Positions 10,300 through 39,921 of a DNA stretch of 64,000 bases are shown in pieces; within the stretch, counting starts at the first letter, position 1; the number at the start of each line of letters is the position of its first letter. The notes under the pieces are model-generated. The model saw only the letters and a program-made list of their open reading frames with translations, had not been told where the DNA came from and made no database searches. The position numbers and the translations under genes are program-made. Location: the NCBI GenBank assembly GCA_024405755.1, contig JAKSOD010000001.1:85039-149038 (forward strand), written 5' to 3'. The DNA is from Clostridia bacterium. Lineage in GTDB: Bacteria > Bacillota > Clostridia > Oscillospirales > CAG-272.

Positions 10300-10740
10300 T
10301 TAATTGCGTTTTTTCCCTGAGGGATCAGAACGAAGTTCGCGGTCTTTTTTCATTGCTTTTTTAAGGCGTGAACAAGTAATCCCTATAATCACTGCTGATA
10401 CAGCATAGATTACGATAATGAGAAGAAGTCCCGTGAAACGTCCTGATCCGGTGACGCCTGATGGCAGAAGAATGCAAGTGAATGCGCCGGTTACAGTCAA
10501 AAGAAAATGAAGGAACCATCTGATGATAGGATCCGGCCTTTCCCGGCACAGCAGAGTATTGGCTATACCGAAAAGAAATGAAAACGGGAGAAACAGAAAT
10601 ATTCTCACAGCGTCAAGTCCCGCGCCGTTTTCAACTCCGGAATAGAGAATCATTATTATTAAACTGAATAATGACGTGACCGCAGTATAGCATATTGCGG
10701 TACCAATAAGTGTTTTCTTAAAAAAATCTTTTATACTCAT
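10300..10740 (-). CDS. Hypothetical integral membrane protein (about 4 TM helices)
   Basis: Hydrophobic segments throughout and a basic C-terminal tail. No family recognised. Confidence 0.55.
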   Translation of the reverse strand: MSIKDFFKKTLIGTAICYTAVTSLFSLIIMILYSGVENGAGLDAVRIFLFLPFSFLFGIANTLLCRERPDPIIRWFLHFLLTVTGAFTCILLPSGVTGSGRFTGLLLIIVIYAVSAVIIGITCSRLKKAMKKDRELRSDPSGKKRN

Positions 10741-10927
10741 TCAATCAATCCGTCCGTTTTTCGCGATTTCCGCGGAAGATATATTATACTTTATCACATT
10801 TTCAGAAAAAAAGCAAGGTCTGGCGGCAAAAAGTTAAAAATAAAGAGTTTCTTCCGACACACCCGAAAACGCACGTCTGAAAATTCAATAAGATTTTTGA
10901 ATATTCATTGTTTTATTCATTTTTATG

Positions 10928-10955
10928 TTGACTTTTTTAAAAAAATAAGTATAAT
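10928..10955 (+). promoter_or_regulatory. Sigma-A type promoter candidate for nusB
   Basis: TTGACT, 16 nt, TATAAT. Confidence 0.45.
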
Positions 10956-11010
10956 ATAATTATTATGGATTTTTATGCGTTCAGATTAGTGAACGCAGAA
11001 AGGAATTCTT

Positions 11011-11427
11011 ATGAAAAGAAAAGAAGCAAGGGCTCAGGTTCTGTCCCTTTTGTTTGAAACCGGATTCCGAAAAGATGAAACTCCCGCAGAAATATATGCG
11101 CGTGCGACGGAAATTAGAGAACTTGAAGATGACGATTATATACGCGACTCATATTTCGGGGTTATGGATAATATTGAATTTACAGATGAAAAAATAGCAG
11201 CTTTTTCACACGGATGGAAAACAGAACGTATTTCTCCGGTTTCGAGAGCGATAATGAGACTTGCGATTTATGAGATGTATTTCAGAGATGATGTCCCCGA
11301 TAATGTTGCGGTAAACGAAGCTGTGGAGCTTGTAAAAGTCTATGATGACGAAGATAAGGTAAAGGCGTTTGTTAACGGAATATTGAACTCCGTACTTCAG
11401 GAGAAAAAATCCGGAGGAGCAGAATAA
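11011..11427 (+). CDS. nusB: Transcription antitermination factor NusB
   Basis: MKRKEARAQVLSLLFE N-terminus, 138 aa, and its position ahead of xseA. Confidence 0.85.
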   Translation: MKRKEARAQVLSLLFETGFRKDETPAEIYARATEIRELEDDDYIRDSYFGVMDNIEFTDEKIAAFSHGWKTERISPVSRAIMRLAIYEMYFRDDVPDNVAVNEAVELVKVYDDEDKVKAFVNGILNSVLQEKKSGGAE

Positions 11428-12380
11428 TGCTTTTCTGCGGTATAGATACAAGCAACTATACCACATCCGCTGCATTGTGTGACGGAGAAGGCAATATTAT
11501 TGCAAATATAAAAAAGCCTTTGCCGGTAAAGGACGGAGATTGCGGACTGCGTCAGTCGGATGCGGTCTTTGCCCATGTAAAAAATCTTCCCGAAGTTATG
11601 CGGACCCTCTCCGAAGTGCTTGACGGCAACACTCCTGATGCAATCGGGGTTTCGTATGCTCCGCGTACTGCTGAAGGGTCATATATGCCGTGCTTTCTGA
11701 CAGGAATCGCCGCCGCGGAGTCTATGTCTGCGGGTAACGGTGCGCCGGTTTTCCGGTTTTCACATCAGCAGGGGCACATTATGGCAGCATATCATACGTC
11801 GGGAGCAGAGGCGGAAAATGCATCCAGAGATGAATTTCTCGCTTTTCATGTTTCCGGCGGTACAACCGAACTTTTAAAGGTTAAACCGCTCGGCGAAGGA
11901 TTCGATGTTGCTCTTGCAGGAGGAACGGAGGATCTCAACGCCGGGCAGGCGATTGACCGTGTCGGTGTTGCACTCGGACTGCATTTCCCTTGCGGGCCTG
12001 AGATGGACAGACTTGCGCACGAGTATGTCGGTGAAATCAAAGGAGTCCGTGTAAGTGTCAACGGTATGAAGTGTAATCTGTCGGGATTGCAGAATCTCGC
12101 GGTGAATATGATTCAGCACGGAGAAGATCCTTGTGCAGTCTGTGCCTTTGTATTTACTTTTATCGGAAAAACTCTTTATAAAATGGCACTCAATGCCCGC
12201 GAGATTTGCGGTGACCTGCCTATCGTGTGGGCAGGCGGTGTTATGAGTAATTCGATCATAAAAACAATGCTGTCAGGTCTTGGCAAAGTATATTTTGCCG
12301 AGCCTCAGTATTCGGCGGACAACGCCGTCGGTACGGCACTTCTGTGCCGCGAAAAATTTTTAAGAGGTCGTAATGTCTGA
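11427..12380 (+). CDS. Kae1/TsaD-like (peptidase M22 / ASKHA fold) family protein
   Basis: GIDTSNYTTSAAL N-terminal phosphate-1-like motif and HVSGGTTELL resemble the glycoprotease/TsaD family. The assignment is tentative. Confidence 0.5.
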   Translation: MLFCGIDTSNYTTSAALCDGEGNIIANIKKPLPVKDGDCGLRQSDAVFAHVKNLPEVMRTLSEVLDGNTPDAIGVSYAPRTAEGSYMPCFLTGIAAAESMSAGNGAPVFRFSHQQGHIMAAYHTSGAEAENASRDEFLAFHVSGGTTELLKVKPLGEGFDVALAGGTEDLNAGQAIDRVGVALGLHFPCGPEMDRLAHEYVGEIKGVRVSVNGMKCNLSGLQNLAVNMIQHGEDPCAVCAFVFTFIGKTLYKMALNAREICGDLPIVWAGGVMSNSIIKTMLSGLGKVYFAEPQYSADNAVGTALLCREKFLRGRNV

Positions 12381-21468: not shown

Positions 21469-22911
21469 ATGAGTATGCAGGGAATCAACAGATACAAGAG
21501 ATTGCTGTCAAATACAGCTATATTTGCGGTAGGCACGTTTGCTTCCAAATTGATGGTCTACCTTCTAATGCCGTTATATACAAGATGCCTGCTCCCGGCT
21601 GAGTCTTCAACTGCGGATCTGATCACAAGTACCGCAAATCTTCTGATGCCGCTTGCTACGATAGGCATGTGTGACGGGATCTTCCGTTTTGCATTGGATG
21701 CCGGAGATAAAAAGAAAGAAGTTTTTTCTTCGGGAATGGCAATGCTATGCGTGGGCTCCATAGGTTTTCTTGCTTTGTCACCTCTGCTTTTCATTTTTGA
21801 TTTTGTTGACGGTTACAGTGCACTTATTGTTGTGTATGTTCTGTCGGCAAATTTTCAGTATGCCTGCGCGAGTTATGTTCGTGCACTCGGTTTTACAAAA
21901 GTATACGCTTTACAAGGGATAATAAATACGGGACTTACTATCCTGTTCAATGTTGTTTTCCTTGTGGTATTTGATATGGGGGTATTGGGGTACGTTCTTT
22001 CTGTCGTGATCGCCAATATCATTGTTATGGGAATTCTTATCGTCTGGAAAAAACTGTATCTTGACTTCAGTTTTTCTTTTGTAACCAAGCAGACGGTAAT
22101 GGATCTTCTGAAATACAGCGTCCCGCTTATCCCCACGCAGACTATGTGGTTTCTGACCAGCCTTACGGACAGACTTCTGGTAAAAGAGTACTGCGGAGAC
22201 GCTGTAAACGGACTGTTTGTTTATTCATATAAGATTCCGACTGTTCTGTCTCTGCTTACAACTATTTTTATTGAAGCGTGGCAGTTTTCGGCTGTAAATG
22301 ACGCCGATGACCGTGACCGCGGACAGTTTTTCGGTAATGTGTTCAACAGTTATATGGGCATAATATTTATGGCGTCCTCGGGACTTATTGCTTTTGCGAA
22401 AGTCTTTACGAAGATTCTCCTCGCGGAGAGTTACTACGGCGCATGGGAATATATGCCGACTCTGATTGTTGCAACCGCTTTCTCGGCATTTGCAACATTT
22501 ATGGGCAGTGTATATCTGGTAAACAAGAAAAGTGTACTTTCTTTCGCAACATCTGCGACAGGGGCACTGATAAACATTGCTTTATCGTGGTCACTTGCTC
22601 CCGATGCCGGTGTACAGGGTGTTGCAGTTGCAACAATATTCAGTTATCTGTCTGTTTTCATTATCAGAACGGTGAATACCAAACACTACGTTCCTTTTAG
22701 CATTCATCCGGTAAAACTGACCGTAAACACAATTCTTGTTGCTGCACAGAGTTTTATTATGATCAAGGAGTATCCCGGATGGATCTTCTGGCAAATCGGT
22801 TTCCTTGCAGTTATTCTTGCTTTTAACGGAAAACCTATTTTTGAGGGAATAATGATGGCATTGAAAAATAAAGTGCCAGCACTTGGCAGACAAAAAAAGG
22901 AAAACTTATAA
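21469..22911 (+). CDS. Polysaccharide biosynthesis / MOP-superfamily flippase
   Basis: About 14 TM segments. The N-terminus LLSNTAIFAVGTFASKLMVYLLMPLYTRCL is typical of the Polysacc_synt family. Confidence 0.7.
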   Translation: MSMQGINRYKRLLSNTAIFAVGTFASKLMVYLLMPLYTRCLLPAESSTADLITSTANLLMPLATIGMCDGIFRFALDAGDKKKEVFSSGMAMLCVGSIGFLALSPLLFIFDFVDGYSALIVVYVLSANFQYACASYVRALGFTKVYALQGIINTGLTILFNVVFLVVFDMGVLGYVLSVVIANIIVMGILIVWKKLYLDFSFSFVTKQTVMDLLKYSVPLIPTQTMWFLTSLTDRLLVKEYCGDAVNGLFVYSYKIPTVLSLLTTIFIEAWQFSAVNDADDRDRGQFFGNVFNSYMGIIFMASSGLIAFAKVFTKILLAESYYGAWEYMPTLIVATAFSAFATFMGSVYLVNKKSVLSFATSATGALINIALSWSLAPDAGVQGVAVATIFSYLSVFIIRTVNTKHYVPFSIHPVKLTVNTILVAAQSFIMIKEYPGWIFWQIGFLAVILAFNGKPIFEGIMMALKNKVPALGRQKKENL

Positions 22912-28055: not shown

Positions 28056-28078
28056 AATTCCGTATGGAGGAGATACAA

Positions 28079-30301
28079 ATGCGTGAGGAAGTTTTTGATA
28101 TCGGAGGTATGCACTGCGCAGCTTGCTCTGCTGCGGTTGAACGCGTAACCCGAAAACTCCCCGGAGTTGAAGAGAGTTCCGTGAATCTGACTACCGAAAA
28201 ATTAACCATAAAATACGACGAGTCGCAGACTACCCGTGAAATGATCATAAAAAAAATTGAAAAAGCGGGATTCACGGCTGTCATACACGTTGACAAAAAA
28301 ACGAAAAGTGAATTATCGGGAAACGGAAAACTTGTCCGTCTTATCATTTCTTCCGGTTTTGCCGCATTGCTGCTTATTGTATCAATGGGACATATGCTTT
28401 TTCCTGATGTTCCTCTTCCGGATTTTATCTCTCCCCAAATTAATCCTTTGAACTTCGCGCTATTGCAGATGTTTCTCGCAATTCCCGTGATTATCCTCGG
28501 ATATGAGTTTTTCACTAACGGTATAGGATCTTTATTTCACGGGAATCCGAATATGAATACCCTTGTTGCGCTTAGTTCCGCCGCATCTTTCATTTACAGC
28601 ACAGTTATGACTTTTTTGATTGTCAGACGTCCTGAGTATGTTCATCAATTGTATTTTGAGTCTTCTGCGGTCGTTATTGCCCTTGTTTCGGTAGGAAAAT
28701 ACCTTGAAACCAAAAGCACCGAAATAACACGTTCGGCAATAACAAAACTTATGAAACTGTCGCCCGATACTGCCGTGCTTGTAACAGACGAAGGGAATCG
28801 TGAAATCAACACCGCTGACGTTAATACCGGTGATATTCTTCTTGTCAGAGCGGGGGAGCATATTCCGCTTGACGGAATAATTGAAAAAGGCACCGGAAGT
28901 GCTGATGAGGCTATGGTCACCGGCGAGAGTATGCCCATAGGCAAAGAAGCCGGGGATACTGTTATCGGAGGAAGTACGCTGATTGAGGGTGCAATCTGTA
29001 TCAGAGTTACCAAAACCGGGAACGACACGACACTTGCAAAAATAATTAAATTTGTTGAGGATGCGCAGGGGAAAAAGGCACCTATCTCAAAAACTGCTGA
29101 TAAAGTTGCGGGTGTGTTTGTGCCCATTGTTATTTGTATTTCAACTGTTTCGGCAGTCGTTTGGCTGATACTTGGGAAGGATATAACTTTTGCTTTGAGG
29201 ATTTTTACTTCCGTACTTGTTATTGCCTGCCCGTGTGCCATGGGTCTTGCGACACCGACTGCAATTATGGCGGGTACCGGACTTGGTGCTTCAAGAGGTA
29301 TACTTGTGAGAAGCGGTGAGGCACTTGAAATTCTTCACGGAGTAAATGTTGCGGTTTTTGACAAAACCGGAACTATTACGGAAGGAAAACCTTCACTCAC
29401 AGATATTTTTTGTGCCGAGGGTGTCGGAAGAACGGAACTTTACCGGATGCTTTATTCATTTGAAACCCTTTCCGAACATCCTATAGCCAAAGCTGTCTGT
29501 TCATCTCAGGAAGCAGCATATATAACGGATATTCCCGAAATAACCGATCTGCGCAGTATTGCAGGAAAAGGTCTTTTGGGAAATTATGAAGGAAATTGTG
29601 TAGCTGTCGGAAATGAAGCACTTCTTAAAGAAATAAATGCAGATTCAACAAAAATGTCAGATAAGGCGCGGCAATTCCGTGAAGAAGGAAAGACCGTGGT
29701 TTATATTTCACGGGACGGTGAGGTGATCGGACTTGCCGCCGTTGCCGATTCGATCCGCGAAGGCGTCTTTGATATGATCGGACAACTGAAAAAACATGGG
29801 ATAACCCCTGTACTTCTTACAGGAGACAACGCTGCCGTTGCCGGAAGAATTGCCGCTGAAGCCGGGATTGAAGAAGTGATTGCCGAGGTCCTGCCGGATG
29901 AGAAGGCAAATGTGGTATCTGAACGAAAAAAAACAGGAACTATTGTTATGATGGTTGGCGACGGAATAAACGACGCGCCTGCTCTTGCAGAGGCTGATAT
30001 TGGAATTGCCGTCGGAAACGGAAGTGATATTGCGATCGATTCGGCTGATATAGTTCTGATGCGAAACGATGCCGAGGATGTTTTCCGTGCAATAAAACTC
30101 GGTAAACTGACTATCAGAAATATCAAACAGAATCTTTTCTGGGCATTTTGTTATAACGTGATAGCTATTCCGGTTGCCGCGGGTGTACTTTATCCCGCAT
30201 TCGGACTATTGTTGACACCAATGATAGGAGGACTTGCAATGAGTCTCAGTTCATTGTTTGTTGTTACGAACGCCCTGCGTCTCGGAAGATTGAAACTATG
30301 A
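28079..30301 (+). CDS. copA: Copper-translocating P1B-type ATPase
   Basis: N-terminal HMA GMHCAACSAAVE, the CPC motif (ACPCAMGLATP), DKTGT and GDGINDAP. ATG 28079 has GGAGGAG 6 nt upstream; the ORF-track start is 28064. Confidence 0.9.
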   Translation: MREEVFDIGGMHCAACSAAVERVTRKLPGVEESSVNLTTEKLTIKYDESQTTREMIIKKIEKAGFTAVIHVDKKTKSELSGNGKLVRLIISSGFAALLLIVSMGHMLFPDVPLPDFISPQINPLNFALLQMFLAIPVIILGYEFFTNGIGSLFHGNPNMNTLVALSSAASFIYSTVMTFLIVRRPEYVHQLYFESSAVVIALVSVGKYLETKSTEITRSAITKLMKLSPDTAVLVTDEGNREINTADVNTGDILLVRAGEHIPLDGIIEKGTGSADEAMVTGESMPIGKEAGDTVIGGSTLIEGAICIRVTKTGNDTTLAKIIKFVEDAQGKKAPISKTADKVAGVFVPIVICISTVSAVVWLILGKDITFALRIFTSVLVIACPCAMGLATPTAIMAGTGLGASRGILVRSGEALEILHGVNVAVFDKTGTITEGKPSLTDIFCAEGVGRTELYRMLYSFETLSEHPIAKAVCSSQEAAYITDIPEITDLRSIAGKGLLGNYEGNCVAVGNEALLKEINADSTKMSDKARQFREEGKTVVYISRDGEVIGLAAVADSIREGVFDMIGQLKKHGITPVLLTGDNAAVAGRIAAEAGIEEVIAEVLPDEKANVVSERKKTGTIVMMVGDGINDAPALAEADIGIAVGNGSDIAIDSADIVLMRNDAEDVFRAIKLGKLTIRNIKQNLFWAFCYNVIAIPVAAGVLYPAFGLLLTPMIGGLAMSLSSLFVVTNALRLGRLKL

Positions 30302-30324
30302 TATCAATTTGAAGGAGAAATCCA

Positions 30325-30507
30325 ATGAGAATACTCAACGTACCTGATATGCATTGTATGCACTGTGTCAAAAGGATTCAAGATGCTCTTAAAGCAGAGC
30401 ATATTGATGCGAATATTGATCTTGTCTCCAAAACCGTCACCGTATTTGACGAAAAAGCCGAAACCGTTATCGGTATTCTTGACGATCTCGGATTCGACGC
30501 GGAATAA
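30325..30507 (+). CDS. copZ: Heavy-metal-associated (CopZ-like) domain protein
   Basis: 60 aa with ferredoxin-like HMA layout. The metal site reads MHCMHC. Confidence 0.7.
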   Translation: MRILNVPDMHCMHCVKRIQDALKAEHIDANIDLVSKTVTVFDEKAETVIGILDDLGFDAE

Positions 30508-30581: not shown

Positions 30582-32501
30582 ATGAATATAGAAAAATATC
30601 CGATACTGTCAACGGTCGACGATCCATCCGACCTGCGTCGGCTCAATGATAAGGATACAGATACACTTGCTGATGAAATCCGAAATTTCCTTGTGGATAA
30701 CGTAAGTCGGACAGGGGGACACCTTGCGTCAAATCTCGGGGTTGTGGAGTTGACACTTGCCCTTCATAGAGTATTAGAAACACCGAAAGATAAGATAATC
30801 TGGGATGTCGGTCACCAATGTTACGTACATAAACTGATTACCGGACGCCGTGATTGTTTTGATACTCTTCGAAAACCTGGAGGTCTTTCCGGATTTACAA
30901 AAAGAAGTGAAAGTGAATATGATCCTTTTGGTGCAGGACACAGTTCCACGTCAGTATCTGCGGCACTCGGAATTGCTGAAGCAGAACGCCTGCGCGGAGG
31001 GGATGCATATACGGTTGCCGTTGTCGGAGACGGAGCTTTTACGGGCGGCATGATACATGAAGCACTAAATAACTGCGACGAAAACAGAGGACTTCGGCTG
31101 ATAATCATTATTAATGAAAACGAAATGTCTATTTCAAAAAATACAGGACGTTTCGCTAACAGTATCTCGAAGATACGTACCCGTCCGAGTTATTTCAGAA
31201 CAAAAGCGGCAACAAGGGGATTTCTTTCAAAAATCCCCCTGTTCGGTAAACCGCTCGTTTCCGGCATTACAAAAACAAAAAAATCACTTAAAAACCTTCT
31301 TTACGGATCAAATTATTTTGAGGATCTCGGACTGTATTATATAGGACCAATAGACGGTAATGACCGTGTAATGGTCGAAAACATGCTTCGGGAAGCAAAA
31401 AAATGCAACGACAGCGTTGTACTTCACGTGAAAACCGTGAAGGGAAAAGGCTATGCTCCTGCGGAAAAGACTCCCGATGCATTTCATGCTGTACCGCCTG
31501 CCGGTTCAGTCGGGCGAAATGGATTTTCTTCTGAATTCGGTAAGTATCTCTGCAAGTCCGCAGTGGAAGATAAAAGGATTTGCGCGATAACCGCTGCAAT
31601 GGGGCGCGGGACCGGTCTTCTTGATTTTCAGAACAAGTTTCCCGAAAGATTCTTTGACGTAGGTATTGCCGAGGAACATGCAGTGACCTTTGCTGCTGGA
31701 CTCGCGTCAAATGGAATGCGACCGGTGTGTGCAATATATTCCACTTTTTTGCAGCGTTCTTACGACAGTCTGATTCATGACGTTTCACTTCAAAACCTTC
31801 CTGTATTGTTTGCCATAGACCGTGCAGGTCTGAATTCATCTGACGGTGCTACACATCACGGAATTTTCGACGTAGCGTTTTTATCGGAAATTCCCGATAT
31901 GGCAATTTATACTCCCGCAACATACGCGGCAATGACAAGTGCCTTTGACGAAGCAAGAAGACTTGAAGTTCCCGCAGCTGTGAGATATCCGAATGCTGCC
32001 GAGGATCCACGGGTCATAGACGCATTTTACGGGAACGTTCTTCCTCTGAAACCCGGTGTGCGTTTATTCGGCCTTGAAGATCCCGGACATACAGATGCCG
32101 TTATTTTCGTACATGGCCGGATGGCTGCAACTGCTCTTGATGTAAAGGATGAACTGAGAAAGCGCGGCATACGGTGCGGGATTGTACTCTGTGAATATAT
32201 TAAGCCGTACCGGAAACTTGCCGAAGAAGTCAAAGCACTGTTTGATAGTCTGAATGGGGATTCTTTGGTCGTTTTCCTTGAAGAAGAAATCCGTTCCGGC
32301 GGATTCGGTATGAATCTTTCGGACGTTCTCGTTCAGCGCGGCTTGCTTTCATCTGATCGTCTTGAAATAATTGCTACTGATGATGATTTTGTTATACCGA
32401 CGTACGGAAAAACTGTTTTTGAAGCCGCCGGTATCGATAAAGACTCGGTTGCCGCAAAAATCACCTCACGCGTAAGTATGTCTTCCGAAGTTAAATTGTA
32501 A
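30582..32501 (+). CDS. dxs: 1-deoxy-D-xylulose-5-phosphate synthase
   Basis: GGHLASNLGVVELTLALH, GDGAFTGGM (ThDP motif) and DRAGL..DGATHHG. An alternative TTG start lies at 30570. Confidence 0.9.
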   Translation: MNIEKYPILSTVDDPSDLRRLNDKDTDTLADEIRNFLVDNVSRTGGHLASNLGVVELTLALHRVLETPKDKIIWDVGHQCYVHKLITGRRDCFDTLRKPGGLSGFTKRSESEYDPFGAGHSSTSVSAALGIAEAERLRGGDAYTVAVVGDGAFTGGMIHEALNNCDENRGLRLIIIINENEMSISKNTGRFANSISKIRTRPSYFRTKAATRGFLSKIPLFGKPLVSGITKTKKSLKNLLYGSNYFEDLGLYYIGPIDGNDRVMVENMLREAKKCNDSVVLHVKTVKGKGYAPAEKTPDAFHAVPPAGSVGRNGFSSEFGKYLCKSAVEDKRICAITAAMGRGTGLLDFQNKFPERFFDVGIAEEHAVTFAAGLASNGMRPVCAIYSTFLQRSYDSLIHDVSLQNLPVLFAIDRAGLNSSDGATHHGIFDVAFLSEIPDMAIYTPATYAAMTSAFDEARRLEVPAAVRYPNAAEDPRVIDAFYGNVLPLKPGVRLFGLEDPGHTDAVIFVHGRMAATALDVKDELRKRGIRCGIVLCEYIKPYRKLAEEVKALFDSLNGDSLVVFLEEEIRSGGFGMNLSDVLVQRGLLSSDRLEIIATDDDFVIPTYGKTVFEAAGIDKDSVAAKITSRVSMSSEVKL

Positions 32502-32514
32502 AAAAACACTGCCG
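32501..32514. repeat. Left arm of a split inverted repeat flanking the accessory segment
   Basis: AAAAAACACTGCCG starts on the last base of the dxs stop codon. Its exact reverse complement is at 38939-38952. Confidence 0.7.
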
Positions 32515-32794
32515 AAATATGCCGCGTGGTGATTTGGATGTGGTTCCCAATAATCATTACCTTAGCATTGCAATGGGAAACGGATAACGCTTGGAAAGGC
32601 AGAAATGCTTTTCTGAGCGTTTTTTCTTATCTGATAATCGGCACATTATATTTGTCTGCTTGTTTCCCCGATAATTTATGGGGAATTATAAAGGATGTCG
32701 AAAGACTAGGAAACGAGGCAGAAATACTTATACTTGGATGACTTTGAAAACCGGGTATTTGTCTGGTGACTTATCATAACCGGTACTCAGCAGC

Positions 32795-32821
32795 CGGCAG
32801 AAAGCCATGCTGCCGTTTTTT
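32795..32821 (+). terminator. Intrinsic terminator candidate in the dxs-regulator spacer
   Basis: Stem CGGCAG / CTGCCG with a 9-nt loop, followed by T6. Confidence 0.5.
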
Positions 32822-32840
32822 CTAACTTTATCAAAACCTA

Positions 32841-32869
32841 TTGAAAATCCAGGTCTATTCGTATATAAT
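32841..32869 (+). promoter_or_regulatory. Sigma-A type promoter candidate for the membrane-tethered LuxR-type regulator
   Basis: TTGAAA, 17 nt, TATAAT. Confidence 0.55.
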
Positions 32870-32927
32870 ATAGTATGTTCTTATGTTCTTTTACGAAAAA
32901 GAAAAAGAGACATTCAGGAGTGATAAG

Positions 32928-34817
32928 ATGAAGCACAACTTATATAAAATGTTCACAAAAACGCTGATACTGCTTGGGGTTCTCAGCATACAGTTGATTG
33001 GTACGCCGACAGCTATAGCTGCAGAATCTTCATTGATTACATCTGTGGATGAACTTACGGATGCGCTGATGAACTCAAACGACGGCGACACGATTCTCGT
33101 AGGAGATATTACATTTAAGCCGATGCCTATGGGGATGATCGTTGTCCCGAAAAATGTAACCATAAAAAGCGGCAAGCAAACTAATGCAGTTTTTACAAAT
33201 GCCACGTTCGCTCTTAACGGTACCACAACGGATTCATCTCCCCTGACTGTAAGATTTGAAAATGTTGATTTCCGCGGAGATCAGTCAGGTATACCCATAG
33301 ACCTGAATGCGCCTCCCACAATAAGCTCGGAAATGCCCGGCATTTTGAAAACAATGTGTGCGGCGATCTTCAAAATGAATGTCAATGCCACATATATCGG
33401 CTGTTCATTTGAAGGTTATCATTACAGCTACGGCGGAGTTTTTAACGCCATTTATTCCTCTGATGACAACAAGAATGCGCTGAATCTTACCTTGATCGAT
33501 TGTTCTTTTCGTAATAACGCATCAAAATTCGGAGGCAGCATCTATTTATCCGGATACAACCACAATGTCAGTTTAGACGCCCGCCGCTGCTCTTTTGATG
33601 CTAACGCCGCCGCGACCGGCGGAGCCATTTGGGCACGGGAATCCAATATTCATCTGCTTGACTGCTCTTTGATCGGTAACGGGTATCTGAATGCCGAAGT
33701 AAATTCGCCCAACGGCGGTGCATTGGCGTTATATAACTGCGGTGTGGATCTTGACGGATGCCTGATTGCGGGTAACACTTCCGGTGGCGACGGAGCCGGC
33801 GTTTTCTGCGAAATCTCGCCCTTCAAGACTTTGATTATGGAAAATTGCACGGTGATCGGCAATACCGCCGCAGAGGATGAAGGCATTTCAGTTGCGCTTG
33901 CCAAAACAAATTTTGATACGGCAGCCGCGGCACACATTTATTTTTCATCGCTCTTCGGGAAACAGAATTTTGCCGGCAATGTGGAATTGTCCGGCTGCCT
34001 GCTTGTTGACAAGAATATCTCAGAAAGTGAACCGAACGAAGAGAATGGATATTGTTTGGAACTGATACCGGAAAGTGCGCAGGAGAAAGGACTGATCCCG
34101 GCAACACCGGAACACGTATCTCTCCCGAAAGATGAATACCCGATCCCGAAAGAAGTGACTGACAGAATTGCCGGCGGAAAATTCGCAGACAGTCTGGGAA
34201 AATTGCAAGTCGGTGATAATTACGAAAAAGAAGCCAACATTGAAATAGAAGATACCCCGGGACACACGGAAGCCGTAACTCTCCGATACGGGGATAGAAT
34301 TGTACTTGAGTCTCCAGAAAGAAAAGGTTATTCCTTTGAGGGATGGGAATATCCCAAAGGAACACCTATTGAAAGCGGGAAAGTTTTCATTGGCGGTGAA
34401 CTGCCCGAAGGGAAAGTAACGGCTCGATGGAACTTCGTTCTCTCGGAAAATCTTTATGTGATATGGGTGCCGATCCTTGTGATCGCCGCCGCAGGTCTGC
34501 TTGCTTTCGTCCTGATCCGGAGAAAAAAGAAAGCAGTCCCTGATGTCGTCCCAGCGGTGGAAAATGCGGCGGAGGAAGCCTTGACTCTGCCGGATGATTG
34601 GATAGACCGGGTGTGCGAAAAGCCGGAAATCACCGGGCTGATTTCCAAGCGTGAGATGGAAGTCCTGCAAAAACTGCTGGAAGGCAAAAGCAGAAAACAG
34701 ATCGCAGAGGAACTGTTTGTCACAGAATCAACGATAAAAAAGCACTCTGCAAGCATTTATTCCAAACTGGACGTACACAACAGGACGGAGTTGATTTACA
34801 AGCTGACCAAACAATAA
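32928..34817 (+). CDS. Single-pass membrane protein: extracellular beta-helix (Pmp-type repeats) plus Listeria-Bacteroides-type repeat, TM helix, cytoplasmic LuxR/GerE HTH
   Basis: ATG 32928 has AGGAG 8 nt upstream. Signal peptide ..LIGTPTAIAAES. FxxN..GGA[IL] units (FRNNASKFGGSIY, FDANAAATGGAIW, NGGALALYN). GYSFEGW repeat. TM helix LYVIWVPILVIAAAGLLAFVLI followed by RRKKK. C-terminal REMEVLQKLLEGKSRKQIAEELFVTESTIKKHSASIYSKLDV. Confidence 0.75.
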   Translation: MKHNLYKMFTKTLILLGVLSIQLIGTPTAIAAESSLITSVDELTDALMNSNDGDTILVGDITFKPMPMGMIVVPKNVTIKSGKQTNAVFTNATFALNGTTTDSSPLTVRFENVDFRGDQSGIPIDLNAPPTISSEMPGILKTMCAAIFKMNVNATYIGCSFEGYHYSYGGVFNAIYSSDDNKNALNLTLIDCSFRNNASKFGGSIYLSGYNHNVSLDARRCSFDANAAATGGAIWARESNIHLLDCSLIGNGYLNAEVNSPNGGALALYNCGVDLDGCLIAGNTSGGDGAGVFCEISPFKTLIMENCTVIGNTAAEDEGISVALAKTNFDTAAAAHIYFSSLFGKQNFAGNVELSGCLLVDKNISESEPNEENGYCLELIPESAQEKGLIPATPEHVSLPKDEYPIPKEVTDRIAGGKFADSLGKLQVGDNYEKEANIEIEDTPGHTEAVTLRYGDRIVLESPERKGYSFEGWEYPKGTPIESGKVFIGGELPEGKVTARWNFVLSENLYVIWVPILVIAAAGLLAFVLIRRKKKAVPDVVPAVENAAEEALTLPDDWIDRVCEKPEITGLISKREMEVLQKLLEGKSRKQIAEELFVTESTIKKHSASIYSKLDVHNRTELIYKLTKQ

Positions 34818-34843
34818 TATACGACGATTGACCTTTTCTTGCA

Positions 34844-34870
34844 CAAAACAGAAAAAGTAGACCTGTTTTG
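34844..34870 (+). terminator. Terminator after the LuxR-type gene
   Basis: 8-bp stem CAAAACAG / CTGTTTTG with an 11-nt loop. The T-rich 3' arm runs into TTC. Confidence 0.5.
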
Positions 34871-34876
34871 TTCAAA

Positions 34877-34921
34877 GGTAGCCTTTTTTCCACTACCATT
34901 TTTACAAAAGATCTGTATAAT
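34877..34921 (+). promoter_or_regulatory. Inverted repeat overlapping a weak -35, plus TATAAT: candidate activator-dependent promoter of the six-gene operon
   Basis: GGTAG-N11-CTACC at 34877-34897. TATAAT at 34916-34921. The hexamer at the -35 position is CTACCA, a poor match. Confidence 0.35.
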
Positions 34922-34970
34922 ATTAATTGTAATCACCAAGGAACAGTGCGTTCGGAAAGGAGGTACAACG

Positions 34971-35393
34971 GTGCTGGATGCAGTAACGAAGAAATACATC
35001 GATGCTTCCACGGAAGAACAGTATAACTTCTCTTTTTTCTGTGACTGCTGCGGCAAGGTCGTCAGCACCACGAAACTCGCATTTCGTCCGGGATTTGAGA
35101 AAAAGCTGTTTCTGTCCCGGGCAGAGCAAAGAGCACGGGAGCTCGTTTGGCGGCAGGATCACGATTCCGCTTATGAACGGGCAAATGTCGAAGCTCTGAA
35201 GAAGCTGAACCGCTGCGTGATATGCGGTGCGGCGATCTGCAATGATTGTACGGTTGAATGTGAAGAAACGGACGGAAAAACCGTATGTGTCAAATGCGCA
35301 AAGGAACATCACTACAAGGGTATCATCTGGAACGACAATGACGAAACCGTACGGGTCGATTTCAGTTCAGAACAGGAAAAGAACGGTGCATAA
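34971..35393 (+). CDS. Cys-rich (probable double zinc-ribbon) cytoplasmic protein, uncharacterised
   Basis: GTG 34971 follows GGAAAGGAGG (34954-34963). Four Cys pairs: CDCC, CVIC, CNDC and CVKC. 140 aa. No family recognised. Confidence 0.6.
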   Translation: MLDAVTKKYIDASTEEQYNFSFFCDCCGKVVSTTKLAFRPGFEKKLFLSRAEQRARELVWRQDHDSAYERANVEALKKLNRCVICGAAICNDCTVECEETDGKTVCVKCAKEHHYKGIIWNDNDETVRVDFSSEQEKNGA

Positions 35394-35417
35394 TTGCACC
35401 TGATCGGAGGTAAACAA

Positions 35418-36041
35418 ATGAGTTTTTTGAAAAACATTATTCGCAACGCCATCGGAGACGGCGTCAGCAAAGGTATTCGTGACGCGGTAAGTTCCGCAGC
35501 GGAAAAGATCGTTGCTCCGAAAGCTGAAGAGTATGCAAACAAAGTGGCAGATTCTCTTGATAACGCTGCCGGAGAAGTGAACGCAGCGACTGCTGCAAGT
35601 GCAGACGAAAAGAAAAGCGGCTTTTCCTCTTTGGAGGAATCTCTGAACAGACTGTCCCGGTCCGCGGAAAAGTATGCCGCAACGCTGGAAAAGGCGGCCG
35701 CTACGCAGGAGGACCTGAACAAGATGTGGAACGAGAAAATTCCCGACTTCCCCGTGTGGTGCTTCGGCGGTACGGATTTTTGGTTTGATGATAACAGTAA
35801 TGACAGCGGCACCTACTATGTATTCAATGCGGATAATGCCCCGCAGGAGGGTTTGGAACTGTATATTGCTCTGCTTAAGCAGAACGGCTTTGTGCGAAAA
35901 TATGCCTCTGCCGATGAAGTTCTTTATAAAGATCTGGGCGGCGAATATCTGCTGTTCGGCTGTACCGATGCTTTCGGCACTGCTCCCGTGATGTCTGTCT
36001 ATATGGGCCGCACGAAAGACAGAAGCGAAATTGAATGTTAA
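35418..36041 (+). CDS. Hypothetical protein (helical Ala/Lys/Glu-rich N-terminal part, globular C-terminal part)
   Basis: ATG 35418 follows GGAGG. 207 aa. No family recognised. Confidence 0.6.
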   Translation: MSFLKNIIRNAIGDGVSKGIRDAVSSAAEKIVAPKAEEYANKVADSLDNAAGEVNAATAASADEKKSGFSSLEESLNRLSRSAEKYAATLEKAAATQEDLNKMWNEKIPDFPVWCFGGTDFWFDDNSNDSGTYYVFNADNAPQEGLELYIALLKQNGFVRKYASADEVLYKDLGGEYLLFGCTDAFGTAPVMSVYMGRTKDRSEIEC

Positions 36042-36057
36042 GAGGACATAATCATCT

Positions 36058-37020
36058 ATGAAAAAGTTTTTTGCAATTATGTTGGCTTTGACTATGCTGC
36101 TTGCTTTTGCGGCTTGCGAAAAAAAGCCGGCTGATACTCCCGAAAGTTCTTCGGAGTCCGGTAATAATCAGAGTCAGTCAACGCCCGGCGACAGTACTGC
36201 TCCCGAGGGCGCGATGTCCGATAAAACCGAGCTGGGCAAAGCCATCGCTTACAGAGTCGACAGCGAAGGACACGTTGTTATCTCCGTCAAGACGTCTGCT
36301 TATATCAAGAACGGCTCCGGCTGGCTCGGCATCTGCCCCATGGGCGTTTACCTGACGGAAGAAGCCGCCGACGCTGCCGATGTTTACTATGAGCATTTTG
36401 ATCCGAATTACGATAAGGAATGGTTTGACGGCATCTACACTTTCGTACTGAAAAACGATAGTATCGATCCGGCAACCTATACGATGGTTCTGTGCGATGA
36501 CGACGATTCCGGCAGCGTGATCGGCGAATGGATCTTTAACAAGACTAAGAGCGGAAGCATCGAGATCGGCTTTGACAACTCGTGGCTGAAGGGTGCAGGC
36601 GAAGGCAGACCCGTGAAGAAGTTTGACAGCTTGAAAGACGAGGTCGCATCCTGGTTCACGTTCAACGAGCTCGATGACGAATGGTCCGAATTCTTCTTTG
36701 ACGGGTACTATCTTGAAGAGGTTGACCCGTATGGATATGACAAATATCATCTGTTTGTCTGCCCTGAAGGCGACTATTCAACGTTTGACGAGGCAATGGA
36801 AGCGCACGTCGGCGATTATTCAGGCTTCGTGGAAAAATGTCCTTATAAGTTCTCAATCGATCACAGCAATATCGGGAAGGGCAAATACACGATGGTGCTT
36901 GCGAGAATGGGCGGCAATGTCGAAGTGCAGTTTACTGCCGAAAAGAAGAGTCCTACCGATTGGAAAATGGACTTCTCAAATGCCAAGTGCCCCAAGCTTG
37001 AAAGCAAATATGTAAAATAA
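36058..37020 (+). CDS. Hypothetical lipoprotein with two internally similar halves
   Basis: MKKFFAIMLALTMLLAFAAC lipobox and a Ser-rich linker. The two halves end in ..ATYTMVLCDDD.. and ..GKYTMVLARMG.. Confidence 0.65.
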   Translation: MKKFFAIMLALTMLLAFAACEKKPADTPESSSESGNNQSQSTPGDSTAPEGAMSDKTELGKAIAYRVDSEGHVVISVKTSAYIKNGSGWLGICPMGVYLTEEAADAADVYYEHFDPNYDKEWFDGIYTFVLKNDSIDPATYTMVLCDDDDSGSVIGEWIFNKTKSGSIEIGFDNSWLKGAGEGRPVKKFDSLKDEVASWFTFNELDDEWSEFFFDGYYLEEVDPYGYDKYHLFVCPEGDYSTFDEAMEAHVGDYSGFVEKCPYKFSIDHSNIGKGKYTMVLARMGGNVEVQFTAEKKSPTDWKMDFSNAKCPKLESKYVK

Positions 37021-37055
37021 TCTCGTCACAAAATTTTGATAAGGAGACAGAAAAA

Positions 37056-37781
37056 ATGAAAAAGTTTATTGCACTTGCACTTGCCGCTTTGATAGTATTC
37101 GCGCTTGCCGCCTGCGGCGGTAAAACCGATCCCAATACGTCGGACAGCACAGTATCTTCCGCGGATACCGAAGACACGTCGTTTCCGGAGGGAGACCCTG
37201 CGGAATATGGCCGTGAGTATTGGGAAGCAAAATATCCGGGTGAGAATATCTGTCCGTTCTATATCGAGGAAAACGGTGTGGAACGCAGTTATTACTGGAT
37301 TTCCGGCCTTGACGGTTGGAACGGCACGATGGCAAGTTGGATCAATCAACCCTTTAACTGGAACGGCTGGCACAAGACAGCGGACGGCTGTATCGTGAAC
37401 AAGGACGAGACCTTGAAGATCACCGACAACTGGGCAAACGGTGACGAATCCATGTCCAGCTACTGCACGGTAACGACCGAAAAGTATGATAAAGACAGCA
37501 CCGGTAATCAGAATACGGAAGTGAGTGAAGACTGGACGTTTACAGATTATGCCAAGCCCGAAAACTGCGAGATCGGCGAGATTGAAGACTGGGGATCCTT
37601 TGCAAAGGTCTATGTTACGTGGGATAGCAAGGATGCCGCAAAGGCATATAAAGAAGCACTTGCGCTTAGCGGCGGAACCACAGCCGACATAGACGGTGCT
37701 TTTGAGTATAATAGCAGTAAAGTGATGATTTCATATTCCGAAACAAACTCTCTCGCAAACTTTGTTATCATTTATAAATAA
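37056..37781 (+). CDS. Hypothetical lipoprotein
   Basis: MKKFIALALAALIVFALAAC lipobox and a Ser/Thr/Asp linker. GGAGA lies upstream. Confidence 0.65.
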   Translation: MKKFIALALAALIVFALAACGGKTDPNTSDSTVSSADTEDTSFPEGDPAEYGREYWEAKYPGENICPFYIEENGVERSYYWISGLDGWNGTMASWINQPFNWNGWHKTADGCIVNKDETLKITDNWANGDESMSSYCTVTTEKYDKDSTGNQNTEVSEDWTFTDYAKPENCEIGEIEDWGSFAKVYVTWDSKDAAKAYKEALALSGGTTADIDGAFEYNSSKVMISYSETNSLANFVIIYK

Positions 37782-37795
37782 TAGGAGGCACAGTT

Positions 37796-38185
37796 ATGGC
37801 TGATTTTAACGAAAAGTTCAACGAATTCAACAACACTCCCGACACGACTGCAGAATACGATCAAAACGACATTCAGCAAAACAAAGTAATGGCGATTTTG
37901 GCGTATTTGTCGTGGCTTGTTCTCGTTCCGATCTTTGCGGCAAAGGAATCAAAATTTGCACGGTTTCACGCAAATCAGGGAATCGTTCTTGCCATTGCGG
38001 AAATCATCTGCTGGGTCGCGCTCGGTATTCTCGGCAATCTGCCGTTCATCGGTTGGATTTTCAGTATTATGGATGGCATGTTCAGCCTCGTGTGTCTGAT
38101 ATTTGCCGTAATAGGTATTATGAACGCCGCAAACGGCAAAGCCAAAGAACTTCCGCTGCTCGGACACTTCAAGATCTTGAAATAA
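37796..38185 (+). CDS. DUF4870-like small membrane protein
   Basis: NKVMAILAYLSWLVLVPIFAAKESKFARFHANQGIVLAI matches the DUF4870 signature (..F.rFHAnQ..). Confidence 0.65.
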   Translation: MADFNEKFNEFNNTPDTTAEYDQNDIQQNKVMAILAYLSWLVLVPIFAAKESKFARFHANQGIVLAIAEIICWVALGILGNLPFIGWIFSIMDGMFSLVCLIFAVIGIMNAANGKAKELPLLGHFKILK

Positions 38186-38210
38186 TCATTTCGGCAACAG
38201 GAGAATTTCT

Positions 38211-38642
38211 ATGAGAAGAAACCTTCTGCTTGCGGGGATTGTCGTTCTGCTTGCTGTTGCCGTATCGGTCCTCGTCCGGTCTGTGCTTGACTCAAAATCA
38301 AACGATATTTCTTCTGTGATTTATGAATCTTCATACGGGTACCGTATCGAGATGACACGGCAGCAGGACGAGTTTTTCTTCTCCTATATTCCGTCGTCGG
38401 AACATGATCCCGTCGAACAGTTGAGAGGCGTGGAAAGCTATGAGACTGTGTCGGAACTGCTGCGGGAATTTGATCTGGACTCTGCGGCGGCTGTATCGGA
38501 CAACACATCCGGAGATGACGACGACCGTCTGACCGTCGTTTTCAAAACCGGCATAAAACATGTGCTGATTCGTCCGGAATCGGACGATGCGTTCCGGAGC
38601 ATCCGCAGCTGTCTGATGGAATTTGCGGGATTATGCCGGTAA
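38211..38642 (+). CDS. Hypothetical membrane-anchored protein
   Basis: N-terminal anchor MRRNLLLAGIVVLLAVAVSVLV. GGAGAA lies upstream. No family recognised. Confidence 0.55.
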   Translation: MRRNLLLAGIVVLLAVAVSVLVRSVLDSKSNDISSVIYESSYGYRIEMTRQQDEFFFSYIPSSEHDPVEQLRGVESYETVSELLREFDLDSAAAVSDNTSGDDDDRLTVVFKTGIKHVLIRPESDDAFRSIRSCLMEFAGLCR

Positions 38643-38690
38643 AGCAGATAATCTTTTGTTTGAAGATACAACATAGTATCAAAAAAGGAA

Positions 38691-38727
38691 AATGTGGCTG
38701 TTAAAAAGTCAATACTTTTTTACAGCC
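38691..38727 (+). repeat. Block X plus A/T-cored hairpin H1
   Basis: AATGTGGCTGTTAAAAAGTCAAT recurs, reverse-complemented and with one extra A, at 60180-60203. The hairpin GGCTGTTAAAAAGT / ACTTTTTTACAGCC has 14 bp with one mismatch. Confidence 0.65.
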
Positions 38728-38764
38728 CGTCAAAAGCAGTGGTCAGGATCCACTGCTTTTGACG
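38728..38764. other. 15-bp perfect hairpin H2
   Basis: CGTCAAAAGCAGTGG / CCACTGCTTTTGACG with a 7-nt loop. No U-tract on either strand. Confidence 0.6.
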
Positions 38765-38814
38765 CGAAATTGGCGTTTTTCCGTGAAACAAGGATGAATA
38801 TTACTCAATTTTCA

Positions 38815-38843
38815 GGGCAACACGGCGGTGTGCAGCCGCTGAG
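38815..38843 (+). repeat. Block Y
   Basis: GGGCAACACGGCGGTGTGCAGCCGCTGAG matches the reverse complement of 60120-60173, apart from 2 substitutions and a 24-nt insertion in the latter. Confidence 0.6.
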
Positions 38844-38855
38844 CCAAATGTCGGC

Positions 38856-38903
38856 GGGGTGTTAAAAAACTCGATAATGAGTTTTTTAACACCCCCGTTT
38901 TTT
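38856..38903 (+). terminator. Strong plus-strand intrinsic terminator H3 with no gene directly upstream
   Basis: 17-bp perfect stem GGGGTGTTAAAAAACTC / GAGTTTTTTAACACCCC with a 6-nt loop, then CG plus T6. Confidence 0.7.
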
Positions 38904-38910
38904 CACAAGT

Positions 38911-38952
38911 TACTGTCTTATCCACCCGTGGGATAAGGCGGCAGTGTTTTTT
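38911..38952 (+). terminator. Second plus-strand terminator-like hairpin; its 3' arm is the right arm of the split inverted repeat
   Basis: TACTGTC pairs with GGCAGTG (two G.U pairs) around an inner TTATCC/GGATAA stem, followed by T6. CGGCAGTGTTTTTT (38939-38952) is the reverse complement of 32501-32514. Confidence 0.55.
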
Positions 38953-38964
38953 ATTTGACTGTTC

Positions 38965-39921
38965 TTATACATTCACAGATAGTCCGAGTGAGTCGATAAC
39001 TTCATGCAGGGAACGGGCAGATTCACGCAGAAGAGTTTCTTCTTTTTCGTTAAGTGGAATCTCAAGTACTTTTTCAATTCCGTTTCTTCCGACAATACAG
39101 GGAATACCCATACATACTCCGTCAATACCGTAATGTCCGCCTACAAGAGTGGATACGGGAAGAATAGTCTGTTCGTCTTTTACGATAGCTGTTACGATTC
39201 TTCGTACGCTTTCTGCAATGGCGTAAAATGTTGCTCCTTTGGCGTCAATGATTCTGTACGCTGCGTCACGAACGTCCTCAAACAACGGATTGAACGACGT
39301 TGGATCACATTCCGAACAGCAATCACGACAGAATGATGAAAGGTCAATGCCGGAAATATTTGCACTGCTCCATACGGGAACCTCGCTGTCTCCATGCTCA
39401 CCGATGATGAATGTGTGAACATTTCTGCTGTCAACGCCGAGTCTGTTGCCGACAAGTTGTTTGAGACGGGCGGTATCGAGTACGGTGCCGGATCCGATAA
39501 CACGGTTGGCGGGAAAGTGTGACATTGAAAGCGTAACGTAGGTCAGAATATCAACGGGATTTGTAACAACAAGCAGGATCCCTTCGCATTTTGCCTCACA
39601 TATACTCCCGACTATTGAAGAGAATACCTTGACATTTTTGTGAACTAGATCAAGACGTGTTTCTCCGGGTCGCTGATTTGCACCTGCGGTGATGATGATA
39701 ATTGCAGCGTCGGAGATATCAGAATAGTCTCCCGCGTAAATGTCAACAGGGAAATTGAAAGGAATACCGTGTACCATATCTTCCGCTTCACCGGCCGCTT
39801 TTTTACGGTCGATATCTACGAGAACTATTTCGGTGAAAAGTCCGGAAAGCATTAAAGTATAGGCGGTTGTTGCACCGACATTTCCACATCCGATAACTGC
39901 ACATTTTCTGTTATTTACCAT
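38965..39921 (-). CDS. ldh: L-lactate dehydrogenase
   Basis: KCAVIGCGNVGATTAYTL (Rossmann motif), VLVDIDRKKAAGEAEDM, and GEHGDSEVPVWS containing the catalytic His. Confidence 0.9.
   Translation of the reverse strand: MVNNRKCAVIGCGNVGATTAYTLMLSGLFTEIVLVDIDRKKAAGEAEDMVHGIPFNFPVDIYAGDYSDISDAAIIIITAGANQRPGETRLDLVHKNVKVFSSIVGSICEAKCEGILLVVTNPVDILTYVTLSMSHFPANRVIGSGTVLDTARLKQLVGNRLGVDSRNVHTFIIGEHGDSEVPVWSSANISGIDLSSFCRDCCSECDPTSFNPLFEDVRDAAYRIIDAKGATFYAIAESVRRIVTAIVKDEQTILPVSTLVGGHYGIDGVCMGIPCIVGRNGIEKVLEIPLNEKEETLLRESARSLHEVIDSLGLSVNV

Follow-up and report, generated by a model that had tools for sequence, protein, structure and literature searches.

A 64,000-nucleotide stretch of the genome of a Clostridia bacterium of the CAG-272 lineage (contig JAKSOD010000001.1, forward-strand positions 85,039 to 149,038), which we call the window, carries six adjacent genes, g1 to g6, and upstream of them the gene of a membrane-embedded LuxR-type regulator, reg. 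With slightly more confidence than doubt, we read this locus from its sequence as a transmembrane one-component signalling unit and the operon that it targets, in which the regulator is accompanied by a zinc co-regulator, g1, and by variable envelope cargo. The part worth following up is the conserved pairing of the regulator with g1; the six genes taken as a “module” appear to be ordinary lineage-specific content. The elements of the locus are, in window coordinates:

32883..34817, + strand: reg, transmembrane LuxR-type one-component regulator, 644 aa; the start may be M16 at 32928
34854..34897, + strand: operator-like element, direct repeats and a palindrome, from a five-locus alignment
34916..34921, + strand: TATAAT, a -10-like hexamer read from the sequence, its spacing kept in related loci
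34971-35393, + strand: g1, open reading frame (ORF) of 140 aa with a GTG start; cytoplasmic, four CxxC pairs
35418-36041, + strand: g2, ORF of 207 aa
36058-37020, + strand: g3, ORF of 320 aa, predicted lipoprotein
37056-37781, + strand: g4, ORF of 241 aa, predicted lipoprotein of two domains
37796-38185, + strand: g5, ORF of 129 aa with three transmembrane (TM) segments, of DUF4870/HOTT type (Tic20/MamF superfamily)
38211-38642, + strand: g6, ORF of 143 aa with an N-terminal membrane anchor
38856..38895, + strand: terminator-like hairpin from a consensus scan, 18 pairs followed by a T run

The product of reg ends in a GerE/LuxR helix-turn-helix (HTH) at residues 588-638 (Pfam 64.8 bits, E 5e-18, cut-off 23.5) and has two hydrophobic segments, an N-terminal signal/anchor at 28-46 and a TM helix at 526-544 that is followed by RRKKK. 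Because the GerE HTH, the TM helix and the N-terminal signal/anchor occur together, we regard it as a single-pass transmembrane LuxR-type regulator; by the positive-inside rule its HTH would be cytoplasmic and its ectodomain of about 480 residues would lie outside. The ectodomain gave sub-threshold Pfam hints of Chlam_PMP and Flg_new, and PDB sequence searches returned no relative for it. By tblastn, orthologues of reg with 66-75% identity lie upstream of g1 or g2 in four other loci (L008, L015, L019 and L024). In L008, L015 and L024 the alignment starts only at residue 10-16 of reg (L019 is cut at the contig end), and the true start is probably M16 (MKHNLYK...), at 32928 and not 32883. The 644-aa ORF as called had no exact match in the protein collection.

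The best evidence that reg and the operon belong together is an operator-like motif in the spacer between them. Two direct repeats, AAAGTAGACC (34854-34863) and AAAGGTAGCC (34874-34883), place their GTAG cores 21 bp apart, and the second repeat doubles as the left arm of a palindrome, GGTAG-N11-CTACC (34877-34897). The repeat consensus, AAAGTAGMCC with the cores about 21 bp apart, recurs in the spacers of the window, L008, L015, L019 and L024; in the alignment of these five loci the GTAG cores are invariant and the inverted arm of the palindrome is kept in four. When 105 loci were scanned for the strict paired-repeat pattern, it was found in L008, L015, L019 and L024 and in none of the 101 others. 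All four carry a reg orthologue, and the window holds a one-base variant of the pattern. The claim of the initial annotation that the upstream membrane-tethered regulator belongs with the operon is upheld by the occurrence of the motif in the spacer of all five reg loci. A further copy, AAGGTAGACC, at 21555-21564 was set aside as chance, since it is single, lies inside a coding region and is on the other strand.

The spacing of the element is suggestive as well. The TATAAT hexamer lies 18 nt downstream of the palindrome, and the same 18 nt separate the palindrome from TATGGT in L024, TATAGT in L015 and TAAAAT in L008. Taking the transcription start as about 7 nt past the hexamer, the palindrome would be centred near -41, where class II activator sites of LuxR type, such as lux boxes, classically lie. 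Moreover, reading of the spacer sequences revealed a hairpin and T run 3′ of the regulator gene in L008, L015, L024 and L026, and therefore the operon seems to have its own regulated promoter.

The layout argues that g1 to g6 are a real operon. The initial annotation had described six co-oriented reading frames with gaps of 14-35 nt and a Shine-Dalgarno sequence before each, and the ORF list, the sequence and GenBank all agree with it: the gaps are 24, 16, 35, 14 and 25 nt, a GGAGG-like sequence is read upstream of every start, and the GenBank calls are identical (MCQ2353579-84, MJ102_00580-00605), five being named “hypothetical” and g5 “zinc ribbon domain-containing protein”. The consensus scan gave no strong-stem terminator-like site within g1-g6. 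The first such site lies beyond g6, and this hairpin, 38856-38895, is the likely end of the transcription unit. It is one of three hairpins (about 38729-38766, 38856-38895 and 38913-38941) in the spacer of about 320 nt, 38643-38964, between g6 and the convergent L-lactate dehydrogenase gene.

The association of g1 with membrane-embedded LuxR regulators reaches well beyond the relatives of reg. A metagenome scan for g1 gave more than 351 loci. The context of 80 of them was analysed, and many apparently stem from termite gut, going by the sample prefixes in the contig names. Within the subfamily of g1 itself (about 31-48% identity), a LuxR HTH ends at most 400 nt upstream on the same strand in 29 of the 47 assessable loci and lies within 1.5 kb in 7 more (36/47 in total). 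In the same scan, the 16 assessable loci at 30% identity or less showed no nearby LuxR HTH; two members of a distant g1 subfamily, looked up separately, follow a 527-aa GerE protein and a HisKA_7TM-GerE protein. A membrane tether and a C-terminal GerE domain are all that the regulators upstream of g1 homologues have in common. Their sensor parts vary, being a reg-like ectodomain (L026, L087), a dCache_1 domain (L066, 62 bits) or a set of 8-11 TM helices. The sequence distances of the HTH and of g1 are correlated (r = 0.57, reached by 0 of 2000 permutations), which shows that the two are inherited as a unit and is by itself no proof of an interaction. Often g1 is present in 2-4 copies and in arrays with regulators. 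These paralogous arrays include L038 (4250-8712), where a TM-LuxR gene is accompanied by a pair of g1 copies and by a second protein, of 9 TM helices, that has LuxR HTH matches, and L044 (2780-6279), where a HOTT gene sits among four copies of g1 that are distributed over both strands.

In some proteins the g1 domain is fused to other parts. It is joined to a LuxR HTH in P0145 (GerE E 1.7e-17) and again in L080, directly behind a multi-TM LuxR gene, and to a HOTT membrane domain, closely g5-like, in P0144. In P0205, P0211, P0224 and P0180 it is followed by a TM helix and then an extracytoplasmic part, and P0223 is a g1 homologue with an added double zinc ribbon. The slot of g1 can also be taken by another protein: a Mor-family transcription activator (PF08765, 46.7 bits) is encoded at 9696-10001 of L008, between the regulator and g2, and likewise in L111 (4714-4998), L112 and L113, in two lineages in all, a possible non-orthologous replacement. 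The fusions and the slot replacement favour a regulatory, membrane-proximal role of g1. Two further reading frames with g1 parts were noticed. P0120 (186 aa, metagenome) begins with the N-terminal ~135 residues of a reg orthologue and continues, from a short “CAAI/GAAIC” stretch that the two have in common, with the last ~50 residues of g1; it reflects a genuine deletion between the two genes or else a chimeric assembly. In L012 (6760-7590; P0002, 276 aa) only the last ~35 residues of g1, probably of a decayed copy, lie upstream of g2 and were fused to it by the gene caller.

From these observations the following mechanism may be proposed. The reg ectodomain would sense an extracellular cue, and reg, still in the membrane, would bind the GTAG element at about -41, over the -35 position in the manner of a class II activator, and so switch on g1-g6. 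As first gene of the induced unit, g1 would be part of the signalling device and not cargo; presumed to bind zinc, it would most likely exert feedback as a co-regulator that acts on the LuxR-type HTH or jointly with it, be it as anti-activator or as co-activator. The second recurrent pair, g2 with the HOTT/DUF4870 protein g5, would probably be found at the cytoplasmic face of the membrane, and the two lipoproteins, g3 and g4, would together with the anchored g6 be lineage-specific surface cargo that alters the cell envelope when the signal is present.

As the initial annotation had stated, g1 and g2 lack a signal peptide or TM segment, no hydrophobic segment being found in either by hydropathy, and g1 has four CxxC pairs: CDCC (24), CVIC (82), CNDC (90) and CVKC (106). 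In the alignment of 46 homologues C24, C27, C82, C85, C90 and C106 are invariant and C93 and C109 nearly so, and the N-terminus and an (A/F)(Y/F)ERAN helix are conserved too; presumably g1 has two zinc sites. Its description as a double zinc ribbon could not be maintained. None of the zinc-ribbon families of Pfam matched g1 significantly, the only zinc-finger match being zf-dskA_traR at E 0.79, and DZR (PF12773) matched one of the 46 homologues at E 0.0089. The AlphaFold2 (AF2) model of g1 is confident (pLDDT 94, pTM 0.82), and Foldseek found no significant structural match for it in PDB (best E 1.6) or BFVD (best E 0.06). We searched with g1 separately, since a concatenated g1+g2 query gave only g2 relatives, and the exhaustive HMMER search yielded 124 representative clusters at 50% identity. 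No plasmid homologue of g1 was found, nor any description of its family in the family libraries or literature searched. The family of g1 is unannotated, distinct and fairly large, and is defined by its place beside a membrane-embedded LuxR regulator.

It is tempting to go one step further, although we think this extension unlikely: g1 may found a family of Cys-rich, probably two-zinc regulators of new fold that dock on the sigma-4-like HTH of membrane LuxR regulators, a LuxR counterpart of anti-sigma or co-activator factors. Several traits recall the ECF sigma factors and their ZAS anti-sigma factors, namely a DNA-binding module like region 4 of sigma-70 (reg and several of the other regulators give weak Sigma70_r4_2 matches), a small Cys-rich protein encoded directly downstream and, in P0205, P0211 and P0224, the anti-sigma order of cytoplasmic Cys-rich domain, TM helix and ectodomain. 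However, g1 does not have the H-x3-C-x2-C motif of ZAS, its invariant His64 being 17 residues from the next CxxC; it shares no PDB sequence or fold similarity with anti-sigma domains, and the membrane anchor is here on the DNA-binding protein; the analogy would be functional only. Another parallel for the kind of role proposed may be the small antiactivators that bind a LuxR-family regulator and tune its activity, as in the TraR-TraM and LasR-QslA pairs. Unlike g1, to which they bear no homology, TraM and QslA are all-helical and metal-free and act on soluble autoinducer-binding LuxR proteins. If such docking takes place, the g1 family would provide these transcription factors, locked in the membrane, with feedback control or with another input. 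Regulator/g1 pairs of this kind number in the hundreds, often as paralogous arrays, in gut Clostridia and in metagenomes from termite gut and elsewhere.

The second recurrent association is that of g2 with g5. Between 107 and 188 relatives of g2 were found, all unnamed, and the family is narrow and confined to gut Clostridia, coming from gut metagenomes or from metagenome-assembled genomes labelled Acutalibacteraceae, Oscillospiraceae, Vescimonas and similar. Its N-terminus is amphipathic and conserved (MxFLKNIIRNA..GISKGI); a long helix comes next, and then a compact beta-beta-alpha-beta4 C-domain. In the AF2 model the pLDDT is about 90 for the C-domain and below 50 for the N-terminal 73 residues. 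The best Foldseek matches in PDB, DcrB and the Eag chaperone SciW, were not significant (E 0.06, TM 0.23-0.30). In some variants (P0105, P0106 and P0268-P0274) a double zinc ribbon with a clear DZR match is inserted between the parts. Homology between the C-domain of g2 and that of g4, which is swappable, was considered and rejected (hhalign probability 4%).

For its part, g5 has three hydrophobic segments (31-49, 62-80 and 88-106). It had been called DUF4870-like; it is indeed a small 3-TM membrane protein, yet its Pfam score falls just under the cut-off for DUF4870 (PF09685; 22.3 bits vs 25), and for TIC20 it reaches 22.7 vs 28.6. It is 67% identical to the L004 protein beside g2 and 72% to a Zn-ribbon-DUF4870 protein of L026, both of them proteins to which precomputed or direct scans assign the DUF4870 domain. 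Among its relatives, DUF4870 scores 24.1 bits in L026 and 33 bits in L032, and the L109 neighbour has a precomputed, unmarked match. The window copy has no zinc ribbon in spite of its GenBank name, which was probably transferred from Zn-ribbon-DUF4870 relatives such as those in L026 and L109. In L004/L005 and L109/L110 a HOTT/DUF4870 gene directly follows that of g2 or of its zinc-ribbon variant, and in L026 and the window one lies nearby. In size, in its three TM segments and in its near-threshold Pfam score g5 resembles the HOTT/DUF4870 proteins (Paulus et al. 2024, PMC11628618); its close homologues carry the N-terminal zinc ribbon that is common in the family, from which the window g5 differs in having none. 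HOTT, reportedly an entirely uncharacterised family, is akin to Tic20 and to the MamF-like proteins of magnetosome assembly, and outside magnetosomes none of its members has a known function (PMC11628618). The recurrent pairing with g2 is one of few contextual clues for the HOTT/DUF4870 family.

Perhaps the core of the locus is a HOTT device for the assembly or targeting of membrane proteins, with g5 as the membrane part, g1 and g2 as cytoplasmic accessory subunits, the former with zinc and the latter amphipathic, the lipoproteins and the anchored protein as clients that it helps to insert or sort, and the LuxR regulator only controlling expression. The g1-HOTT fusion P0144, whose membrane part is closely g5-like, would suit such a device, as would the HOTT genes that directly follow g1 in L032 and L041, lie near it in L026 and L044, or come immediately after g2 or its zinc-ribbon variant in L004/L005 and L109/L110; moreover, many HOTT proteins have an N-terminal zinc ribbon of their own (L026, L109), and the MamF-like relatives are needed for magnetosome membrane-protein assembly (PMC11628618). 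Yet HOTT occurs in only about 5 of the 80 g1 loci and in a minority of g2 loci, the family itself is reportedly uncharacterised throughout (PMC11628618), and a client relationship cannot be read from sequence. We consider this explanation quite unlikely.

The remaining genes show how loosely the set is held together. The seven proteins, reg included, were compared by tblastn and ORF inspection with 19 genome loci and a few contigs. Across the 19, g2 is the only constant gene, and what follows it varies: g3-like lipoproteins in six loci, g4-like ones in two, other lipoproteins or signal-peptide proteins in several, an orthologue of g5 alone in L004/L005, and nothing related to the window genes in L007, L014, L016, L020 and L022. 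The full six-gene set is unique to the window, and the “self-contained module” of six or seven genes seen by the initial annotation dissolves, since there is no co-conservation of the whole. Its alternative, that the genes are not co-conserved, was found to be true in part. Only three links recur: regulator-g1 (broad), g1 or regulator with g2 (narrow), and g2 with g5/HOTT.

The other part of that annotation, which took the last four products for envelope proteins, is confirmed by hydropathy, lipoboxes and TM segments. Signal peptides end in a lipobox in both g3 (LLAFAA-C20, AFAAC) and g4 (FALAA-C20, ALAAC), so that both are predicted lipoproteins as had been proposed; the internal duplication claimed for one of them is only weakly discernible, in g3 (BLASTP E 0.003, 32% identity over 56 aa). 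Homologues of g3 follow g2 in L009, L010, L017, L021 (= L003), L024 and L025; the protein is conserved where present, and its lipobox Cys is invariant in six homologues. The N-domain of g4 has homologues in L008, L011 and L054, and its C-domain is attached to the g3 homologue of L003/L021. There (10680-12002) a frameshift or an assembly error splits the homologue of g3, and the extra g4 C-domain points to domain shuffling among lipoproteins. As to g6, it has one N-terminal TM segment (residues 4-22), and it is recognised as a gene by its ORF, its Shine-Dalgarno sequence, the GenBank call and a single relative, 23% identical, downstream of g2 in L015. Beyond the signal peptide, g3, g4 and g6 have no relative in Pfam, NCBIfam or PDB. 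Behind g1, the first gene encodes a lipoprotein, a secreted protein or a (polytopic) membrane protein in 40 of 48 loci vs 20 of 36 distant ORFs (Fisher p = 0.007, with a crude predictor), these proteins being unrelated in sequence between loci. We regard g3, g4 and g6 as interchangeable, ordinary lineage-specific envelope cargo. In L111 (5631-10537) a giant VWA-domain protein of more than 2176 aa stands after g2 in a regulator-Mor-g2 locus, and cargo can hence be a very large surface protein.

Such a mosaic downstream of g2 in the 19 genome loci, with g2 standing alone in L007, L014, L016, L020 and L022, is also what a mere transcriptional bundle of unrelated, fast-evolving envelope genes would produce, whose products do not work together and in which g1 is the first cargo gene and has no signalling role; its product might be, say, a small protein that buffers zinc or redox state. 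This explanation, which we judge unlikely though well ahead of a HOTT device, gains from the loci L008 and L015, devoid of g1 despite the same regulator and operator, and from the fact that all the products are orphans in the family libraries. What it leaves unexplained is that g1 keeps its place beside membrane LuxR regulators of diverse sensors, at identities as low as about 25%, although the cargo is exchanged completely; that fusions of g1 with a LuxR HTH exist in two independent sequences; that Mor, a transcription activator, can stand in for g1 in its slot; and that the g2-HOTT pairing recurs in four different contexts.

Several points nevertheless weigh against a signalling unit with g1 as its co-regulator. 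Adjacency and correlated divergence would also be expected if g1 were simply the first regulated gene, co-inherited with its regulator. The Mor protein in L008 and the empty slot in L015, between the reg orthologue and g2, imply that g1 is no obligatory partner, unless a copy exists elsewhere in the genome. In most genome loci g2 has no adjacent LuxR gene. LuxR-family sites are usually simple palindromes, and here it is the direct repeat that is best conserved, L019 having no inverted arm at all. Finally, we infer from sequence the promoter, the transcription start and activation as opposed to repression, and the one feature that points to activation of the adjacent genes by reg is the operator-like motif at class II distance.

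Small orphan proteins, variable gene content and a mixture of zinc-binding and membrane proteins might also raise the suspicion of an anti-phage defence system, of a cassette for toxin and immunity or of a decayed prophage; this is already disfavoured and we hold it to be very improbable. Scans of Pfam, NCBIfam, PHROGs and PADLOC gave g1-g4 and g6 no significant family beyond signal peptides, and PDB sequence and profile searches with g1, g2, g3, g4, g6 and the reg ectodomain returned only chance-level RING/FYVE-like or coiled-coil matches, in agreement with the earlier statement that the products show no enzymatic motif and none of the ATPase or nuclease hallmarks of defence; nor could a phage family be recognised in any of them. 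In PADLOC there was no match to a defence model, only weak helical or HTH-local ones, of which the best, g2 against ZorA (E 4e-4, 17 bits), is non-significant and falls in a low-complexity helical stretch. No ATPase, nuclease, protease or toxin domain is present, the PHROG matches are limited to signal peptides, and g1 has neither a plasmid match nor a significant BFVD match. Moreover, the flanking genes are housekeeping ones (dxs, ldh, glpK, rpsP), and the base composition shows no marked departure from the rest of the window, with a GC fraction of 0.474-0.476 for the region and 0.39-0.48 across the window.

Regulators of comparable build have been studied elsewhere. In Eggerthella lenta, the membrane-spanning LuxR-type proteins DadR, HcdR and CadR were demonstrated to activate adjacent genes (Dong et al. 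2022, PMC9734109). They share with reg a membrane-tethered C-terminal LuxR/GerE HTH, a gene beside its targets and membership in large paralogous families of gut anaerobes, and several regulators upstream of g1 homologues approach them further with their 8-11 TM helices. They differ in having a 10-12 TM bundle as sensor and catabolic enzymes as targets, whereas reg has a single internal TM helix, a large ectodomain and envelope targets, and its action as an activator is presumed. No zinc-protein partner is described for them, the word “zinc” occurring 0 times in the text (PMC9734109), nor is one reported in the paper on transmembrane transcription regulators (TTR), which are widespread (PMC10269533).

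In the case of ToxR and TcpP, ToxS and TcpH serve as partners. The ToxR-ToxS and TcpP-TcpH pairs, of the TTR class (PMC10269533), resemble reg and g1 in that a one-component regulator acts from the membrane and a small gene lies immediately downstream. However, ToxR and TcpP carry an N-terminal winged helix, an arrangement that is inverted in reg with its C-terminal LuxR-type HTH, and ToxS and TcpH are membrane or periplasmic proteins, unlike the cytoplasmic g1 with its four CxxC pairs. Gut anaerobes commonly have membrane-tethered transcription factors, and little is understood of how these are controlled (PMC10269533, PMC9734109). Were g1 a dedicated partner, it would be a missing component for a whole class of LuxR-type membrane regulators and a compact, confidently modelled zinc domain without a solved relative, and the regulator/operator/g1 triplet would offer a handle on the inducing signals and regulons of uncultured gut Clostridia.

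As for the surroundings of the locus, no Rfam family was matched in 32400-39100. The rpsP/KH-domain-protein/ffh neighbourhood is common to the window and L004. Just upstream of dxs, at 28064-30507, lie the gene of a copper-translocating P-type ATPase and, after it, a small ORF for a CopZ-like metallochaperone, both of them ordinary housekeeping neighbours.

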